A stretch of 64,000 bases of DNA from an uncultured Acidimicrobiaceae bacterium (GCA_963764305.1 CAVXSD010000009.1:369949-433948), one strand, 5' to 3'; positions 8,932 to 47,918 are shown, numbered from the stretch's first letter. Translations and numbers: made by a program. Notes: generated by a model not told the origin, from the letters alone.

Positions 8932-9380
8932 CGTTGCTCCTTAGGGACGAAGGAGAAGTATTTCGACAGGGTGTGACAATGGCCACGGCACGGCAGAGAT
9001 CGCCGTAGTAGGTACGGGAGGGGAGCCGTCCGGGATTGCGCATATCACAGAGCTGGAGAATTTCATGGGAAGGATGGTGGGTTGGTCAGTTCTCGGGATG
9101 CAACATGATCGTCATCGTCGCGTGGCTCGGGGGGATTGGACAGTCGGATTTCCACCGAATGGCGTCCGCCGGTCGGTCCCCAAGGTCCGTCATCCGCCTG
9201 GGACATCCGCTAGGTCAAAGAAAGTGCAGGGTCCCGTTCGCCGGGACCGTTACTGCCGGTGCGGTGGTATGACTTCTTTAGATACTTCCCCCTGAAAAAG
9301 TCGCCGTAGGTGCTCGCGATTTGAGCCCCGATCGATAAGGATGGCCCCGAACCGTAGGACTAGTACGGATCGAGGCCATC

Positions 9381-10883: not shown

Positions 10884-11689
10884 TCACTGCCTCAGCCAGT
10901 TGTCGACGAGAGCGTCAACACCTCGGTGCAACCGGTCTGGAATTCGATGACCGCACGAAGGCCATCGGACGTCTCCACTTCCTTCCTCGCGGTTCCCCGC
11001 GGAGGCCGCCTGGGTCGGAGGCCCGTAGAATGTCTTGAACTCGGCGAGGAGCTCGGACGGCGTGCCCGCGAAATTGCCCGCGAAATTGAAGGTGTACGTG
11101 TCCCGCTCCAACGCGATCTGCCCTGCGGTGACACCCGCGCCGGCGAACCTTCGATCACGTGCTCCTCGACTGCCCACGTCATCGGGCTGATGAATCCCTC
11201 TGGAGGAGGCGGGGAGTAGCTCGAGCTGATCTTGAGAACCTGGGCGACGAGCGTCGGGTCGTTGGGGATCCAATTGCCCATGACGATCCGGCCGCCGGGC
11301 GTGTGACCCGGACGACCTCCTTGGCCACGTTGTGTGGCCTTGGCGCGAACATGGCCCCGAAGATGCTGACCACGAGGTCGAAGCGATCGTTCTCGAGACC
11401 GTGCAGATCGGTGGGTGTCGCCTTGCCCGGATCGGCAGTTGGTCAACCCGAGGCTCCGAGCCCGGGCGTTGCCGGCCTCGACGAGGTTGCTGGCGATGTC
11501 GACCCCGAGCACGTTCGCCCCGAGGGCGGCGGCCGGTAGGGCGGTCGTCCTGTCCCCACACCCAAGGTCCAGGACCTCGAGATCCCTCGTGATCGCCAGC
11601 TCCTTGGCGAGCGCCTCACCGCTGTCCCGCATGCTGGCCGCAATTCGGGTGAAATCGCCTTTTTCCCAGAGTGTCTGTTTCGGATTCAT
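10884..11689 (-). pseudogene. Class I SAM-dependent methyltransferase with at least 3 frame switches
   Basis: GGGAGG precedes the ATG at 11689. VLDLGCGDRTTALPAA is in one frame, [39 protein letters not shown] in a second, and [17 protein letters not shown] back in the first. RFAGAGVTAGQIALERDTYTFNF is in the third. Confidence 0.7.
11063..11086. repeat. 12-bp perfect tandem duplication (GCCCGCGAAATT x2)
   Basis: 11063-11074 is identical to 11075-11086. Encodes the FAGN-FAG duplication in the methyltransferase pseudogene. Confidence 0.9.
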
Positions 11690-11929
11690 CTTCTTCGTTG
11701 CCTCCCGGGTCGTTGACACGTCATGACCGCAGCCCGGGTTGCCAGGGGCGAGTTTGAAACTCGAGCGCGGGTACCCCCTGCTGAGCTCTGGGCGCAGCAC
11801 CGCCCCGGGGGAGCACCCTTCACTCCGATGCTCGCGGGCTGGTCACGCTCACTGCCTGCGGGGCCACCTTCGGGCGCCTCTGAGGAGGTGACCGATCGCC
11901 GGCCCGAGCTCTCGTGCGGGTGGGCCGCC

Positions 11930-12756
11930 CTACCCGGGCTCGTCGGGCCGCGGGTTCGGCGCGAGGTCGGGCGCCGGCACCGCGATGGCCGGTGCCTCGG
12001 TGCCGCCGTCGATCTCGAACACCTTGCCCGTCACCCACGATGAGGCGTCGGACACGAGGTAGAGCACGGCACAGGCGATGTCCTCGGGCTCTCCCGGTCG
12101 TCCCAGCGGGGTGCCGTCGAGGAACTGCTGCCGCAGGGTGTCGTCGGTCAGGACGACGTCGAGCGAGCGCGTGGCAACGCCGCCGACGTCGATGGCGTTG
12201 ACTCGCACCCGTGGGGCGAGCTCGGGCGCGATGTTGCGCGTCATCCGGTCGAGCGCCGCCTTGGCCGCGCCATAGGCGACGAACATGGTCTGGGTCATGC
12301 TGGCCGAGCGCGACGAGATGTTGACGACGGCACCGGCGCCGACGGTGTCGACCATCTGGCGGGCCGCCAGCTTGGTCAGCGTGAGCGGCGCAGTGACATT
12401 GAACGCGAAGGTGCGGGCCATGAAGCCCTCGCTGGTCTCCATCGCGGCCCGGGGCATGGCGCCGCCCGCGTTGTTGACCAGGATGTCGAGGCGGCCGAAC
12501 TCCGTCGACGGCACGGGCCACCAGCTCGCTCGCAGGCGGCCGCGTCGGTGACGTCGGTGGGCACGACGAGCGCCCGGCGGCCGAGCGATCGGATCTGCGC
12601 CGCCACGTCCTCGAGGTCGGACGCCGTGCGCGCCGCCAGCACCACGTCCGCTCCTGCCTCGGCCAGGCCGATGGCGATGCCGCGCCCGATCCCGAGGCCC
12701 GCCCCCGTGACGATGGCCGACCCGGTCCCTGCGACGGAGAAGCGATCGAGGATCAC
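11930..12756 (-). pseudogene. SDR-family oxidoreductase (FabG-like) with 2 frame switches about 30 nt apart
   Basis: [12 protein letters not shown] and the N-terminal half are in the frame of ORF 12376..12888. ELVARAVD is in a third frame. [14 protein letters not shown] ... YGAAKAAL ... is in the frame of ORF 11930..13081. The GTG start at 12756 overlaps the upstream stop (GTGA). Confidence 0.75.
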
Positions 12757-13846
12757 GCCGGCGGGTGTCCCCGCCGGCTCCGGTGCAGCCCCGGCTCGGC
12801 CCGGCCGGCCACCAGGGGCAGGTCGAGGTAGGTGCGCAGTCCCGGGCTCGGCCTCGCAGACGTAGGGGATGGCGTTGACGCAGTGCAATGCCGTGGCGAC
12901 GATGCCCGGATTGCGGACGCAGGCCGGCCTCCACCGACTCGGGGTGCAACTTCTTGAAGGTGACGAGGCAGTTCGGATCGCCCGTGACCTCGACCTCGAA
13001 GCGTTCCCCGGCCGGCCCGAAGCCCCAGGCCGGGTCGAGGTGCTCCTCGCCCATCAGCCAGTTGACCGCCGCGGTGACCACCGGCTCGCCGTCGACCAGC
13101 CGCCTCCCACTTGAACCGCTGTGCCGCCACCGTCCCCGGTTGGATCGGGCCGATGGGCGAGTCGATCGGCGCCGTGGCGACCGCCATCTCGTGGGTGGTC
13201 CGCAGCTGCGGATCGATGTCGAACCCCAGCTCGTCGGCGACCATGAAGATCGACTGGCGGAATCCCGCGCCGAGCGCGTCGGTCATGATGCTGCCGCGCG
13301 CCTCCTCCGGGGTCTTGCCGAACAGCATCCAGTCGCGGACGACGTCGGGGGCGCCGTAGGTGCGGATGTCGGAGAACTCCTCGGCCCGCACGTGGGTGAT
13401 GGAGCCCGACAGGGCGGAGATCATGAGCGGGAACCGCTCGGTGATCCCCCCGGGGTGGATGCCGGTGCCGTGCAAGGTCACGCCGGCCGCCCGGGCGATG
13501 GCGTCGAACTTCTCCCGCTCCTCGCTCGGTGGGTAGAACCAGCCGAGCGGGGTGACCACGTTCTTGCCCGACTCCAGGATGGCGGCCACCACGTCGGATC
13601 GGCCATGAAGGGGCTGTAGAGGACGCAGTCGGCGTCGGTGGCCAGCAGCGCGTCGACGTCGCCGGTGGCGGTCACGCCCAATTCTCCTCGCGCCCAGCAG
13701 GACCCCGAGGTCCACCCCTCCTTGGCCGGGCTGTGGACCCAGGCCCCGGCGAGCTCGAGATCGGGATGCTGGAGGACCCCCTCGATGGCGGCACGGCCCA
13801 CCCCCCCGGTCGCCCACTGGATCACGCGGAAGCTCACGGGCCACAT
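12753..13846 (-). pseudogene. NAD(P)-binding oxidoreductase (DapB-N/saccharopine-dehydrogenase-like family) with 6 frame switches
   Basis: Conserved segments alternate between frames. In order they are RVIQWATGGVGRAAI..HSPAKEG, VDLGVLLGARR, GVTATGDVDALLATDADCVLYSPFMAD and DVVAAILESGKNVVTPLG...QRFKWE. These are followed by [13 protein letters not shown]..., [25 protein letters not shown] and [14 protein letters not shown]. Confidence 0.65.
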
Positions 13847-13936
13847 CCTTTGCTCGTCGGGACAGGCATCGCCCGGAATGATGCCACCTGGCCGGCGAAG
13901 TGACAGAGGTGCGGCGGCACCGTGGCGATGCTGCAA

Positions 13937-15220
13937 TCACCCGAGGGGCGTGAACTCCAAATGCAACCGTTGCAGGCCGCGCAAGATGTAGGTCGGCGCG
14001 TACTCGTACCGGCGTGCGCCGGCCGGGCCGTGTTCCGAGTCCGAGATCTCGATGTCGCCCATGCGGGCGAGGAGCCGCTCGACGCTGATGCGGGCCTCGG
14101 CCCGGGCCAGCGGCCCCCCGGGGCAGGAATGCGGGACCGCGTCCGAAGGCGAGATGCTCGCTGGCGTTCGGCACGGTCCAGCCGGAACTCGCCGGGGTCC
14201 TCGAAATGGCGGGGGTCTCGGCCGGCGGCTCCGTTGAGCACCATGATCGTGGTGCCGGCCGGGATGTCGACACCGCCGACCGTGCTCGGCGTGCGCGACA
14301 GGCGGAAGTCCCCTTGCACCGGGCTCTCCATCCGGAGGCACTCCTCGATGAAATCGGGAATGCGGGTGCGGTCCTCCCGGAGCAGTTGCTGCAGGTCGCT
14401 GCGCTCGCCGATCAACTGCAGCGCGGCGGCGAGCAGCCGCACCGTCGTCTCCTGGCCGGCCGAGAACACGTTGGCGGCCACCCGGACGACGTCGATCACT
14501 TCGGGCATCGAGCCGTCGGGAAAGGTGGCGGTCGCCAGGCCCGTCAGCACGTCGTCGCGCGGCTCGCGGCGCCGGTCCTCGACGTACGTCGTCAGCTGGT
14601 CGTAGAGGAACTCGAGCGGCGAGTGGCCGAGCGAGCCGGACCCCGTGCTCCCGAGCGCCTGGCTGTGTTGGCGGCTGCCCTGGAGCTCCTCGCGGAACCA
14701 CTCGTGGTCGGACTCGGGAACGCCCAGGAGATCGGCGATCACGTACAGCGTGAAAGGCCCGGCGAAGTCCCTGATGAGCTCGCACTCCCCGCGTGCGACG
14801 AACTCGTCGATCTGTCGGTCCGCCCGGCGCCACATGAATTCCTCGTTCTCCCTGAGGCGCTTCGGGGTGATCAGCCGCATCAGCATGCCCCGGTGCGCCT
14901 TGTGCTTGGGCGGGTCCATCGTGGTGATCTGGTCGCTGAACGGCAACTCGTCGCGGTGCTGCTCGATGAGGGCGCTGACGTCGTCGCCCTCGAGCGGGAC
15001 AGGGAACCCGGGGAACGGGCCGGTCACGGCATTGCACGACGAGAAGGTGGCGGTGTCGGTGTAGACCGAGACCGCCTCTTCGTAGCCCGTGACCATCACG
15101 ACGCCGTGGTGCGGCTCCGGCTGCACGGGGCATTGCGCACGCAGGCGCGTCGAAGTACGGGTAGGGGTCGACGACCAGCTCGCGGCCCCGGAAGAAGTCG
15201 ATGCCGTCGTAGTCGCTCAT
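13937..15220 (-). pseudogene. Cytochrome P450 with 3 frame switches
   Basis: MSDYDGIDFFRG.. is in one frame and the body (AGQETT, ESPV) in a second. PNASEHLAFGRGP is in a third, and HSCPGGPLARAE... to the stop is back in the first. One switch falls inside the haem-binding loop FGRGPHSCPG. Confidence 0.75.
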
Positions 15221-32485: not shown

Positions 32486-32601
32486 CCGGCGCCGGCGCCG
32501 GCGCCTGTCACAGCAGTTCCGTAGGGTGTGCTCCATGCCCGGTGCGCGCCCTCTGATCCCGGCCCCGGCGCGTGGCGGCCGGTAGGGTTCGAGCCGACCG
32601 A

Positions 32602-34025
32602 ATGCCGCTTCGCCGTCGCACCGCGACCTCCAATTTCGGCGTCGGGCGCCGCGAATCGCACGTGGCGGACGCCTTCTACGCCCGCTTCGAGGCACCGGAG
32701 CTCAGCGCCGACGAGCACGTGCAGCCGCACGCGCCCGGCGTCTCCTGTGTGCAGGGCGACGCCCGGCGGATGGAGGCCGTGGCGGACGACTCGGTGGCCC
32801 TCGTGGTCACCTCGCCGCCGTACTTCGCCGGGAAGCAGTACGAGGAGGAGCTCGACCGTGAGGGAGTGCCGGGCTCCTACATCGAGTACCTGGCGCTGCT
32901 GCGCGGCGTCTTCGCCGAGTGCAAGCGGGTGCTCGAGCCGGGCGGCCGCATCGCCGTCAACGTGGCGAATCTCGGCCGCAAGCCCTATCGGAGCCTGGCC
33001 GCCGACGTCATGGCCATTCTGCAGGACGACCTGCACCTGTTGCCCCGGGGCGAGATCGTGTGGCAGAAGGGCGAGGGGGCCAGCGGCTCCTGCGCCTGGG
33101 GCTCCTTCCGCTCCCCCGCCAATCCGGTGCTGCGCGACGTGACCGAGCGCGTCATCGTGGCCAGCAAGGGGCGCTTCGGGCGGGCCCGCAGCGCCAAGGA
33201 GCGCCGGCGCGAGGGCCTGCCCCACGAGAGCACCATCGGGGCGGACGACTTCATGGCGCTGACGCTCGACGTCTGGGACATCCCGCCCGAGAGCGCGGTG
33301 CGCGTGCGGCACCCCGCACCCTTCCCCGTCGAGCTACCGCAACGGCTGATGGAGCTCTACACGTATCGAGGCGATCTCGTGGTCGATCCCTTCGCCGGGT
33401 CCGGCTCCACCCTCGTGGCGGCGCTGCACTGCGGGCGGGACGCCGTGGGCTACGACCTCGACCCCGCCTACGTCGAGCTGTCCCGTGCGCGCCTGGCGGC
33501 CGAGGCGCCGGTCGCCGGGGCCGCGGGCGTGGCCGCGTGCGCGGCGACGCCCAGGCCGTGGCGTTCGACGGGACCTCCGCCGCCACGCTGGCGCGGGCCG
33601 CGCTCGAGTCCGCCGGCTTCGCCGACGTGCGGCCCAACCGCCGCCTGCGCGGACTGGGACTGGCCGTCGACTTCACCGGCAGCGACGCCGCGGGCCGGAC
33701 GTGGTACTTCGACGTGGCCGGCCCGAACTCGGCCTACCGGGGCGGCATGGCGCGCTCCGAGACGGTGTGGCGGGCGCTCGGCCGGGCCCATGTGATGGCC
33801 GCCGGCGCAAAGGCGCCCTTCGTGGTGCTCACGACGCAGCTGCCCCGGTCCGGCACCGGGGCGGACCGCGCCCTGCGTGCTCCGGGACCGGGCGGGATCT
33901 TCGACGCCATCGACCTCCTCTCGGCCGACGCCCGGGCGCGGCTGGCGACGTACGCCGGCGGCCGGACGGTCTCACCCCGGGCGGGGTTCTGGTCGGCCGC
34001 GGACGTGACCCCGGGCGGCGTCTGA
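32602..34025 (+). pseudogene. Beta-class (N6_N4-type) DNA methyltransferase with an SPPY motif. The frame switches near 33535 into an uncharacterised 160-aa C-terminal module (fusion broken by an indel, or two overlapping genes)
   Basis: Motif IV VVTSPPYFAGKQYE lies before motif I VVDPFAGSGSTLVAA, which is the beta-class order. After about 33530 the MTase frame becomes Pro/Arg-rich off-frame-like sequence. The frame of ORF 32919..34025 instead reads well-formed protein (DFTGSDAAGRTWYFDVAG...PFVVLTTQLP) to TGA 34023-34025. Confidence 0.75.
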
Positions 34026-34059
34026 CCATGGACGGCGTCTGACCATGGACGGGGTCTGA
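34017..34059. repeat. 17-bp tandem repeat (GGCGTCTGACCATGGAC x2 plus 9 nt) at a gene junction
   Basis: 34017-34033 is identical to 34034-34050, with a partial third copy at 34051-34059. Each copy contains a TGA and an ATG. Confidence 0.95.
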
Positions 34060-34373
34060 TGGGCTCCGTCGTCGCCTGCGCGGTCGTGCGGGAGGACCCG
34101 CCGCGCGTGTTCGTCGCCGAGGACCTCGACACGCTGAACTGGGTGCTGGCCTGCCAGCTGGTGGCCAAGACGCCCGGTCGCGACCTGCCGCCCGGCGAGC
34201 GCGCCGCGCTGCGCCAGGCCCTGCGCGAAGAGCGCTGGGGCGACGCCGTGTTCGCCTTCATCGCCCGCACGGGGACGGCGGTCGACGTCTACGAGAGCAC
34301 CGACCTGCACCTGACCGCCGATGCGCCGGTGGGGCCACTGGAGCTCCAGCTCACCCCCCTGTTCACCGAGTAG
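34059..34373 (+). CDS. Hypothetical protein (104 aa)
   Basis: The ATG at 34059 overlaps the TGA of the second mini-ORF. GC-rich third positions, no recognisable family. Confidence 0.45.
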   Translation: MGSVVACAVVREDPPRVFVAEDLDTLNWVLACQLVAKTPGRDLPPGERAALRQALREERWGDAVFAFIARTGTAVDVYESTDLHLTADAPVGPLELQLTPLFTE

Positions 34374-34537
34374 ACGCCGACTCGCCCGAAACCAGGCGCG
34401 CGACGCCTGAGGTCGGGCTCTCCCTGCCGCTGCGAGAAGAGGTACCGGAACGACACCTTGACGTCGTGCTCGCCCGGCGGCACGGCGAACATGTGGTCAC
34501 CCCACTTGAGCACCGAGGTCGTCCCGTCGATGGTCAC
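34289..34537 (-). pseudogene. Possible C-terminal gene fragment
   Basis: The reading TKIFPLAFLLLRFNTNVTIDGTTSVLKWGDHMFAVPPGEHDVKV looks protein-like. However, an in-frame stop lies just upstream and only a GTG is available as a start. The tail overlaps the convergent ORF. Confidence 0.2.
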
Positions 34538-34783: not shown

Positions 34784-35980
34784 ATGCCGAGCGACCGCAC
34801 CACGGTGACCGAGCTCAGCACCGGTCTCGGCATGCTGGGGCTGGCGGGCATCGAGGAGGCGCTGCGGCAGCGCACGGCCGTGATGCACAGCCTGTCCCCC
34901 GAGATGTGGGAGCGCCTGGACCGCCTGCGCTCCGGGGGCGCCTACGACGCGGAGTTCCACGCCGCCTGGGCGAACGGGCGGGCCTTCCTGACGGCCGCCG
35001 ACGGCCTCCGGGGCCGACCGCCCCGGGTGGTCGAGTGGAAGGGCACCGGCCGCGCCCCGGGCGACGAGGTGGCACCCATCGACCTCCGCATCGACCACGT
35101 CTATCTCGTGAGCTGCAAGTACCTCTCGAAGATCCTCTTCAACGTCTCGCCGACCAGCGTCTTCGACTCCCTCCTCTTCGGGGGGCAGGGCCGGGGTGCC
35201 CGCGCCGCGAGGGAGGTGCTGCCGGGCGGCGGCGACTGGTACGTCGAGGTGGCGCCGGCCGAGTACCAGGCCTTGTACGAGGCCGTCCGCGAATCAGCGC
35301 GGGGTGGCGTGGCGGCCGAGCCACCACCGCCCGGATCGGCGGCCCACCCGGAGCGCGCCGGCCGGCCGGCCGCCGCCCCGGTGCTCCCGGGACTCGGAGC
35401 GGTCCCGGTCACCGGGGCGGTCGCGTCCGGTGGATCACGAGGCGAGGCGCGGCCGGCGCTGTTGCGCGACCTGCCACTCCGGGCGGTGGACCTCACCGTG
35501 CCCCAGCGCGACGCGCTGGGCCGGTGGCTCCGAGCCGGCTGGCCGGCGGGCGCCAAGGATCTCTACGCGGCGCTGTCGAGTGCGGTCGCCCGTGCCTCCG
35601 CACGTCGGTGGGAAGCGGCGATGGAAGCCGGGGCGGCGGCCGGTGAGGCCATGCTCTGGCGCCTCCTGCGCATCGGGAGCGCGCCGTACTTCGTGCTGGG
35701 TTCCTCGACCGCCCGCTCCCTGCGCCTGCGCATCGCCACTTCTTGGGACTGGCGCCAGCAGTTCCAGCTCGTCGCGTTCGCCATGGAGGCCCAGCCCGGA
35801 GGCCAGCCCCGGGTGGGATGGGAGGCCACGGTGCGCGACCGGGTCTCCCATGCGGTGCACTCCGTGGTCGGGCACATCGAGGTCCGCTGGAGCCACGGCC
35901 GCTTCGGAGGGCTCCCCGAGGCCAAGGGTTACCTCGACACGGCTCACCATCTCGTTCCCGGCTATTTCACGCTCCGATGA
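34784..35980 (+). CDS. Uncharacterised 398-aa protein with a PD-(D/E)xK-like D-x9-S-x-K motif (candidate nuclease)
   Basis: GGAGGA lies 7 nt upstream of the ATG at 34784. The motif is APIDLRIDHVYLVSCKYLS. There is a central Ala/Pro/Gly-rich low-complexity insert. The C-terminal half is well formed (APYFVLGSS...EVRWSHGRFGG). Confidence 0.6.
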   Translation: MPSDRTTVTELSTGLGMLGLAGIEEALRQRTAVMHSLSPEMWERLDRLRSGGAYDAEFHAAWANGRAFLTAADGLRGRPPRVVEWKGTGRAPGDEVAPIDLRIDHVYLVSCKYLSKILFNVSPTSVFDSLLFGGQGRGARAAREVLPGGGDWYVEVAPAEYQALYEAVRESARGGVAAEPPPPGSAAHPERAGRPAAAPVLPGLGAVPVTGAVASGGSRGEARPALLRDLPLRAVDLTVPQRDALGRWLRAGWPAGAKDLYAALSSAVARASARRWEAAMEAGAAAGEAMLWRLLRIGSAPYFVLGSSTARSLRLRIATSWDWRQQFQLVAFAMEAQPGGQPRVGWEATVRDRVSHAVHSVVGHIEVRWSHGRFGGLPEAKGYLDTAHHLVPGYFTLR

Positions 35981-46695: not shown

Positions 46696-47918
46696 TCAAG
46701 GACGGACGGCCGACGGGACTTGGCTGACCACCTTATAAGCCCGCTCGCGCACCCGATCGATGACGCCCGCACTGCTGGGCGCCGGATCGTCACCGGCACG
46801 AGGGGGCAAGACGAAGTCGGTGTACATGACGCGGCGTTCCCGCGCGACCGGCGCATGGCTCATGTGCAGGGTGCACGAGCAGTGGACGGTGACGTCGCCA
46901 GTGCGGGTCGGGAGCGGGACCGCGGGCAGCCCCCAGGAGTCGCGGAAGAAGGCGGGCTGGACGAGGGCCCGGTGGGAACCGGCCACGACCCCGAGCTGGC
47001 CCGAGCGATGGTCGGCGCCGGTGACCGAGATCCCAACCGTCAGGCTGCAGCAGCGCGAGGAGTGCCGCCCGAGGCTGCAGTCCTTGTGCCACGGCAGGTC
47101 GGAGATGCCCCTAACGACGCCGATGGGTTTGACAAGCGCCTCGATCTTGTTGCTGCCCTGGTCTCGCGGCACGTGCCCGTCGCCCGTGAGCGAGGCGAGG
47201 CGAAGGAGCCGGTCGTCCTCCAGCAATGCCGTGGTCGCAAGACTCTCCTCTTGGAACCCCTGTAGGCGTACCGCCCGCTCCTCGCCGTCGGCGGTGGTGG
47301 CCCACCAGGACCGGCCGTCACCCTCGTGGTAGCGCGGGAGGGCGGCATCCATGTCGGCCGAGACCTGCGCCATTTCGTCGGTCGTGAAGACCTCGGTCAG
47401 GTGGAGGTACCCCGCCTCGCCAAGGTAGTACCCCAGTTCGGCCGGATCGTCGTCGACCGTAAACGAGCGCTGGAGGTCGAGCGGGCCGCCGTCACGGTCG
47501 GTGAATGTGACGTCACCCGCGGTGTGCACGGTGCGGGCATCGAGCAGCGAGCGGAGGACGACCCACCAGTCGAGGAAGTCGTTGATGTCACCGATCGGCA
47601 TGTCGAGCGTTGCGGCCGCGAGGAGCGTCATCGGCGTCCGGCGGTCGTGGACGATGTCGGTGATCTCGTCCACGTCGAGGCGCACAGCGGCGTGCCCACC
47701 GCCGCCGGGGCGCACCCGGACGGCATCGTCATCGACCGACAACGTCCAGGTGCCGGCGGTCGTCTCGATCGTGAACGGCCGGACGCCCAGCTCGCGGCGC
47801 CTGGGACGGCCAGCGCAGAGCCGTCCGCCGCCAGGCGGGGCAGCTGGGTCCCGAAGAAGTCCGCGACGTCGATCGTCTCGACGTCGACGTCGTTGCGGGT
47901 GCGGAAATCGATCGTCAT
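46696..47918 (-). pseudogene. PhyH-family dioxygenase with an N-terminal extension and one frameshift near 47795
   Basis: MTIDFRTRNDVDVETIDVADFFGTQLPRLAADG.. is in one frame. RELGVRPFTIETTAGTWTL... to the end (LPWHKDCS, VTVHCSCTLHMS) is in another. Confidence 0.65.

Follow-up and report, generated by a model that had tools for sequence, protein, structure and literature searches.

The window analysed here, a 64,000-nucleotide stretch of DNA (68% GC) from an uncultured Acidimicrobiaceae bacterium, carries at 32602-34025 a single gene with a product of about 473 amino acids, whose DNA methyltransferase (MTase) part and C-terminal module stand in different reading frames in the given sequence and are fused in one frame as the norm among relatives. 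It is probable that this gene encodes a beta-class MTase with a degenerate nuclease-fold tail and that the frame break in its linker is a consensus error. The intact protein would consist of an N-terminal beta-class MTase, a variable Ala/Gly-rich linker and a domain of about 150 amino acids with a PD-(D/E)xK fold, which would serve the MTase as an accessory DNA-binding or dimerisation domain, and the one-base break would arise as a long-read consensus indel error in a GC-rich, length-polymorphic stretch rather than being a property of the organism. The features of the locus are as follows:

32602-33535, plus strand: beta-class MTase domain, N-terminal part of the gene (PF01555; SPPY at 32812-32823; DPFAGSGST at 33385-33411)
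33508-33557, plus strand: variable Ala/Gly-rich linker holding the frame break (DNA alignments, anchor spacing, Viterbi decoding, comparison with the relative L013)
33519-33545, plus strand: imperfect 12-nt direct repeat, 2.2 copies, spanning the switch of frame (Tandem Repeats Finder, score 40)
33536-33795, plus strand: Pro/Arg/Trp-rich continuation of the MTase frame, an off-frame reading of the module and not coding (Viterbi decoding leaves the frame at 33535)
33536-34025, plus strand: C-terminal module in the second frame, stop codon TGA at 34023-34025 (homologue searches, AlphaFold2, Foldseek)
34016-34059, plus strand: 17-nt tandem repeat, 2.6 copies, 96% matches (Tandem Repeats Finder, score 81)
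34059-34373, plus strand: conserved 104-aa ORF, 3' of the MTase-module gene in most relatives (tblastn)
34784-35980, plus strand: conserved 398-aa partner protein, adjoining the MTase-module gene in 20 of the 24 genomes of the genus

Gene layout and joining of the two frames

The MTase frame forms an open reading frame on the plus strand at 32572-33795, open as far as the TGA at 33793-33795, and the ATG at 32602 is likely the true start when judged from the starts of relatives, whose N-termini read MPPRRRTATSNFGVG. Residues 75-304 of this frame (nucleotides 32794-33483) match the Pfam family PF01555 (N6_N4_Mtase) with 121.3 bits against a cut-off of 26.7, and motif IV (SPPY) precedes motif I (DPFAGSGST), which is the permuted order of the beta class. 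An intact homologue matches the PADLOC Type II MTase model at 6e-76. The best solved relative of the MTase part is the TTHA0409-type stand-alone MTase of Thermus thermophilus (PDB 2zie; E 1.8e-34, query residues 61-313), the second rank is taken by the N4-cytosine MTases 8s9m and 8s9n, and the SPPY form of motif IV suggests that the enzyme is probably N4-cytosine-specific. With 297 aa, 2zie aligns up to the RLAxE helix, ends about 15 residues past it and lacks a C-terminal module, and the PADLOC Type II MTase profile (312 positions) also stops shortly past this helix; the module therefore comes in addition to a normal MTase core.

Immediately 5' of the junction the MTase frame reads DLDPAYVELSRARLAAEAP. 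An earlier sequence-only reading of this DNA had described the frame as continuing without a stop to 33795 in a Pro/Arg/Trp-rich, off-frame tail, and this was confirmed by a codon-usage Viterbi decoding, which exits the frame at 33535; a tail of this kind is present in no relative. The stop-free extension by itself is uninformative, because the genome has 68% GC. The module frame is open from 32919 to its TGA and reads AVAFDGTSAATLARAALESAGFADV...PFVVLTTQLP, with AFDGTSAATLARAALESAGFADV...PFVVLTTQLP from about 33555 onwards. All coordinates of the sequence-only reading were correct on re-checking.

The downstream frame has 447 homologues at E<=0.001 in a representative library (134 in another search) and hence is coding sequence beyond chance. 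Using a six-frame search, the 162-aa downstream product was found in 35 of 41 genomes (40 relatives and G000), the matches usually lying within a single open frame of 470-530 aa. The question whether fused homologues of about 470 aa exist, raised by the sequence-only reading, is answered by their abundance: a protein search scored over the C-terminal 151 residues of P0121, the intact 468-aa homologue of a relative, returned 346 matches, mostly of 462-480 aa with PF01555 and usually named 'site-specific DNA-methyltransferase' in Acidimicrobiales MAGs. Single-frame homologues of 462-500 aa in Acidimicrobiales thus number in the hundreds. The closest relatives (P0002, P0089 and P0090) are open straight across the junction, where P0089 reads ...RLAGEVPVAGAGAGSGEVVAFDGTSAATLARAALESAGF, and the end of the MTase and the module share one frame in all 33 metagenome loci that hold both. 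At the same time, substitutions between the window and a 95%-identical relative fall in the downstream region mainly at third codon positions of the module frame. The proposal of one MTase-plus-domain gene, split by an indel near 33530-33540, is thus supported by the fused homologues and by the Viterbi switch at 33535/33536; its wording 'now split' holds for the one gene, but the split is less likely a mutation than a consensus error of the assembly, given breaks confined to Nanopore-only assemblies and the density of frame switches.

Position and origin of the frame break

The linker, which lies between RLAxE and (G/F)DG(T/A)SA, varies in both length and sequence in DNA alignments with relatives. 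The spacing from the GYDLDPAYV to the AGF anchor ranges from 129 to 198 nt and is a multiple of three in most relatives, and in the window it is 164 nt, one base short of being in frame or two bases over. Using a codon-usage Viterbi model trained on the source genome, the coding frame switches at 33535/33536, with the MTase frame left at 33535 and the module frame entered at 33536, and comparison of both frames with relatives bounds the break to about 33528-33542. Relative to in-frame relatives the break is thus a deficit of one base or a surplus of two. When the gene is compared with that of the 95%-identical L013, all indel differences are at 33536 and 33550. The linker in the window has no long homopolymer, only a run of four G, and no long simple-sequence repeat with a unit other than a multiple of three is found in the ORF, which holds only this G4 run and the 12-nt repeat of 2.2 copies.

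The origin of the break was approached by a survey of the gene in other assemblies, using tblastn of P0121 over 80 genome loci, 62 of them from Microflora Danica (MFD) MAGs and 18 from short-read MAGs. To the short-read side were added the 33 metagenome loci with both parts, whose Ga-numbered contigs we take to be mostly Illumina assemblies. MFD MAGs are Nanopore-only Flye assemblies with a single Medaka round (PMC12313526). The gene is frame-broken in 13 of the 62 Nanopore MAG loci, at varied positions and with both signs, and in none of the 18 short-read MAG loci and none of the 33 metagenome loci (13/62 vs 0/51; Fisher p=2e-4). The source genome, assembled to 4.94 Mb in 10 contigs, contains 545 same-strand coding-frame switches with no stop close by, a density of 11 per 100 kb, and the corresponding rate is 19.7 per 100 kb in Nanopore relatives and loci versus 4.0 per 100 kb in short-read ones; 11 or 12 such switches lie inside the window. 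From its contiguity, its relatives and this density of frame switches, we infer that the source genome is itself a Nanopore MAG. On this statistical basis, the most probable cause of the linker break is an indel error in the consensus of a metagenome assembled from long reads only.

About half of the gene's breaks across Nanopore MAGs lie in the linker, which makes up only about 11% of the gene length, and uniformly random errors would not give such clustering. The linker would be GC-rich, of low complexity and length-polymorphic among co-occurring strains, so that a consensus built from mixed strains could lose the frame.

It is unlikely, though to be weighed most seriously among the alternatives, that a recent one-base indel has really occurred in the linker, leaving either a pseudogene or a truncated MTase with a junk tail and an untranslated module. 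The given sequence is indeed out of frame, an indel in the linker would harm the MTase fold least, linker breaks cluster in several genomes, and components of the system can decay, as the partner gene in one mobile island is disrupted by an IS element. However, the gene is broken only in Nanopore-only assemblies, and about 545 comparable switches occur elsewhere in the same genome. Furthermore, neither half of the gene has an in-frame stop, and both halves are under purifying selection in the genomes of the window and of L013: differences in the MTase part fall 1/2/20 on the three codon positions, and those in the module region 3/3/8 when counted in the module frame, compared with 3/8/3 in the MTase frame. 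In the near-conspecific L013 the same linker is broken with the opposite sign, so that two recent inactivations would have had to occur independently.

That the two frames are joined deliberately, whether through programmed -1 ribosomal frameshifting or through a phase-variable repeat that toggles the C-terminal domain, is very improbable: a shift of -1 is what is needed, different genomes show breaks of either sign in this same linker and the imperfect 12-nt repeat spans the site, but a slippery heptamer of the X XXY YYZ type is absent from 33480-33560, the longest homopolymer at the junction is G4, a change in copy number of a 12-nt unit would preserve the frame, the position of the break varies among genomes, and nearly all homologues, including every short-read one, are simply in frame. 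With no slippery site and no suitable repeat, both mechanisms were rejected. The chance is just as slight that there are two overlapping genes, an MTase ending at 33795 and a separate module gene starting at GTG 33537, as the sequence-only reading had considered, or at GTG 33558. Both GTG codons do occur in the module frame, and databases hold many module-only products of 120-170 aa, but neither codon is preceded by a Shine-Dalgarno-like sequence, codon usage in the 260-nt overlap is that of the module frame alone, a stand-alone module is not seen within the clade, and the module-only products that were checked are cuts at contig ends or come from frame-broken assemblies. The stand-alone module gene was discarded on these grounds.

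If the break is a consensus error, as we consider probable, the split matters mainly as a warning for long-read-only MAGs of high-GC bacteria. Frame switches of this kind affect roughly a tenth of the genes in such MAGs and are concentrated in low-complexity linkers; there they give the appearance of gene fission, overlapping genes or recoding.

Two kinds of side observation concern the linker and the consensus around it. The short-read metagenome contigs L178:1-461 and L179:1-452 end within a few bases of the linker/module boundary, and many database 'hypothetical proteins' of 147 aa are products of contig ends at this boundary; short-read contig ends there suggest that the linker is hypervariable or polymorphic between co-occurring strains. 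Elsewhere in the window, Viterbi decoding finds seven frame switches without nearby stops within 3 kb (11147-14159, minus strand) and further ones at 47791, 52386 and 52733, and the 20-kb bin at 340-360 kb of contig C9, just upstream of the window, holds 27; the clusters at 11147-14159 and in this bin look like patches of poor consensus.

Fold and predicted role of the C-terminal module

The conserved module is about 150 aa long, with a structured core at about 33570-34007. Profile and structure searches with the module alone, which the sequence-only reading had proposed, found no family in Pfam, NCBIfam, PADLOC or PHROGs and no PDB sequence match, and pointed by AlphaFold2 and Foldseek to a PD-(D/E)xK-like fold. 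The AlphaFold2 model, run with a 68-sequence alignment, has a pLDDT of 86.2 and a pTM of 0.83, with helices predicted at residues 15-26, 74-89, 108-114 and 130-141 and strands at 29-37, 42-49, 55-61, 95-99 and 123-126 (in the order H15-26, E29-37, E42-49, E55-61, H74-89, E95-99, H108-114, E123-126, H130-141). Its predicted core is alpha-beta-beta-beta-alpha-beta, the topology of the PD-(D/E)xK fold, and the top matches in PDB and BFVD are nearly all PD-(D/E)xK nucleases. In PDB these comprise NucS/EndoMS, BsoBI, the R2 restriction-like endonuclease (RLE), SfsA, Card1 and EcoO109I, and further EcoT38I, Exo5, DrdV, LmuA and VRR-NUC; in BFVD they comprise restriction endonuclease, Mrr, VRR-NUC and Cas4. 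The matches are weak in absolute terms (E 0.002-0.1, TM 0.3-0.49). Compared with the nucleases themselves (NucS/EndoMS C-terminal domain, 2vld and 5gke; BsoBI; EcoO109I), the module shares the core topology with a Foldseek probability of up to 1.0, but has no detectable sequence similarity and reaches a TM of only 0.3-0.48. The structural model thus supports the assignment of the module as a restriction-endonuclease-like PD-(D/E)xK domain, at the level of the fold only.

The same nucleases differ from the module in the active site, where the module has Ser or Ala instead of the lysine of (D/E)xK and usually Asn instead of the first acidic residue. Among the 68 module sequences, position 45 at the site of the first acidic, metal-binding residue on beta2 is N in 44, D in 11 and S in 11, position 59 at the site of the beta3 acid is D in 66 and E in 2, and position 61 at the site of the canonical lysine is S in 48 and A in 20, so that the catalytic D...(D/E)-x-K on beta2 and beta3 was found in none of them. 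The nuclease-like fold that had been suspected from a D..D...FDV pattern is therefore upheld by AlphaFold2 and Foldseek, but an intact PD-(D/E)xK catalytic motif is not. Conserved in the module are D50, R68, K/R79, R83 and D123, and D59 is nearly invariant. Because the canonical lysine is lost and the first acidic residue is usually lost, the module is read as non-catalytic, that is, as a probable degenerate nuclease fold with a DNA-binding or dimerisation role. The family is described in no curated library and represents a nuclease fold without the nuclease motif.

That the module is an active nuclease, and the protein thus a bifunctional restriction-modification enzyme, is distinctly improbable. 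Such an activity would agree with the predicted PD-(D/E)xK-like fold, with the near-invariant D59 and the conservation of D50, R68, K/R79, R83 and D123, and with the presence of a paralogous module at the head of a protein of about 304 aa beside a homologous MTase in an integrase-flanked island. Some PD-(D/E)xK enzymes draw catalytic residues from non-canonical positions, and the conserved R68, K/R79, R83 and D123 might in principle make up an active site of an atypical kind. It is opposed by the Ser or Ala at the canonical lysine position in 68/68 sequences, by the Asn at the first metal-binding position in 44/68, and by the fixed place of the gene in the chromosome, with flanks conserved throughout the clade, and an MTase part that is 83-96% identical between species, both unlike typical mobile restriction-modification enzymes.

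For a degenerate fold that assists the MTase, the nearest known counterpart is CcrM of Caulobacter (PDB 6PBD). Motif IV of CcrM is DPPY, and the window's MTase differs from it with SPPY. Both proteins combine a beta-class PF01555 MTase, a short linker and a C-terminal accessory domain of about 90-150 aa, and both are conserved over a whole bacterial clade at a stable locus. CcrM's C-terminal domain binds the non-target strand of the DNA, and activity depends on it (PMC6787082). It is, however, a six-stranded SAND/PWWP-like domain (PMC6787082), unlike the alpha-beta-beta-beta-alpha-beta core predicted for the module; 6pbd is not among the top 50 Foldseek matches of the module, and the NCBIfam CcrM equivalog NF050803 is matched with only 43.5 bits against a cut-off of 830. 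Homology of the two C-terminal domains was ruled out by the different fold, and the resemblance to CcrM would be one of functional analogy. Once the role of the module is defined, the principle known from CcrM, an MTase paired with an accessory DNA-binding domain, would be extended to a new fold and to a new phylum.

In Type IIG/IIL enzymes an active nuclease at the N-terminus is combined with a gamma-class MTase and a separate target-recognition domain. These enzymes (MmeI, DrdV) resemble the window's protein in joining a nuclease-fold domain to a DNA MTase in one polypeptide, and DrdV is among the weaker fold matches of the module, but the window's protein has a beta-class MTase first, followed by the putatively degenerate nuclease fold, and no separate recognition domain. 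Membership of a MADS system was rejected on the basis of only a weak mad2 match confined to motif I. No relevant work on an actinobacterial MTase with a restriction-endonuclease-like C-terminal domain turned up in a search of the literature.

Locus, partner genes and relatives of the module

Beyond the split, the gene is of interest for an undescribed C-terminal domain on a strongly conserved Acidimicrobiales MTase, and for its conserved partners. The MTase part is 83-96% identical over many Acidimicrobiaceae species at a fixed locus, whose flanks are kept, with a GNAT gene upstream in 68 of 80 loci and an acetyltransferase gene downstream in 76 of 80; the locus is stably chromosomal and not a mobile island. 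Of the 24 genomes of the genus, 20 have the order MTase-module, 104-aa ORF, 398-aa protein, and metagenome loci still show it where identity of the 398-aa protein is as low as 47%.

In most loci the 104-aa ORF separates the module from the 398-aa gene (39-94% identity by tblastn); it has no family in Pfam, NCBIfam or PADLOC. The 398-aa protein has invariant P98, D100, D104 and S110-C111-K112 together with WRLLR and WDWR motifs, and its residues 134-148 and 185-218 are disordered and variable. Its AlphaFold2 model (pLDDT 82.6, pTM 0.82) has no PDB fold match with E<0.3, and searches with the protein found no PDB sequence match and no family in Pfam, NCBIfam, PADLOC or PHROG. For some of its homologues the 6 kb upstream contain no MTase, and elsewhere in the order many MTase-module genes occur without the 398-aa partner. 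Since the 398-aa protein has no family or fold match and the partners are often separate, the reading of the locus as a restriction-modification system is unproven; that the 398-aa protein is a demonstrable restriction endonuclease was not supported, the D100/D104/S-C-K112 residues alone being suggestive. Frame switches in the 398-aa gene of Nanopore MAG relatives cluster in its low-complexity middle.

Rather unlikely is the broader reading in which a clade-wide, vertically inherited 'housekeeping' MTase of Acidimicrobiales, a functional counterpart of CcrM, would form with the 104-aa and 398-aa products an undescribed epigenetic or defence module. If this were true, a degenerate restriction-endonuclease fold would be the MTase's second DNA-binding domain, and the same domain in the family of about 304 aa would target a second activity to the same DNA sites.

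Several smaller features distinguish the window from its relatives in the stretch downstream of the gene. The 17-nt repeat at 34016-34059 spans the stop codon of the module and the start of the 104-aa ORF, and L014 and similar relatives have a plain short spacer in its place; the repeat could be real or another consensus artefact. L014 also carries a gene for a predicted 411-aa membrane protein on the opposite strand (L014:4853-6088, minus strand) between the 104-aa ORF and the 398-aa gene, as do other members of a subset of relatives, in which the 398-aa gene lies about 2.1 kb downstream of the module. The window has only a small opposite-strand ORF at this place (34289-34537). An opposite-strand gene in between means that, in this clade, the MTase and 398-aa genes do not form one operon.

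The 447 relatives of the module in the representative-library search include a family of proteins of about 304 aa (P0398, P0465, P0270 and about 100 more, named 'hypothetical protein', in Actinomycetota and Chloroflexota MAGs), in which the module stands at the N-terminus and is followed by a domain of about 140 aa. This second domain (X) has no Pfam family, only a sub-threshold match to DUF3574. Two genes of the family were placed in their loci:

L093:6001-6915: gene for a protein of about 304 aa, next to a homologous MTase-module gene in an island flanked by integrase and IS
L097:6001-6933: gene for a protein of about 304 aa, with no MTase nearby

The order in the L093 island is a 491-aa MTase with module, a 173-aa ORF, the 304-aa protein and a 313-aa protein. 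The 491-aa MTase is 61% identical to that of the window, the module of the 304-aa protein is 52% identical to the module in the island's MTase, and the 313-aa protein is 40% identical to the 398-aa ORF of the window. This homologue of the 398-aa protein (L093:6919-7860 and 9011-9187) is cut by an IS with HTH_Tnp_1 and rve, and its last 60 or so residues are encoded beyond the insertion.
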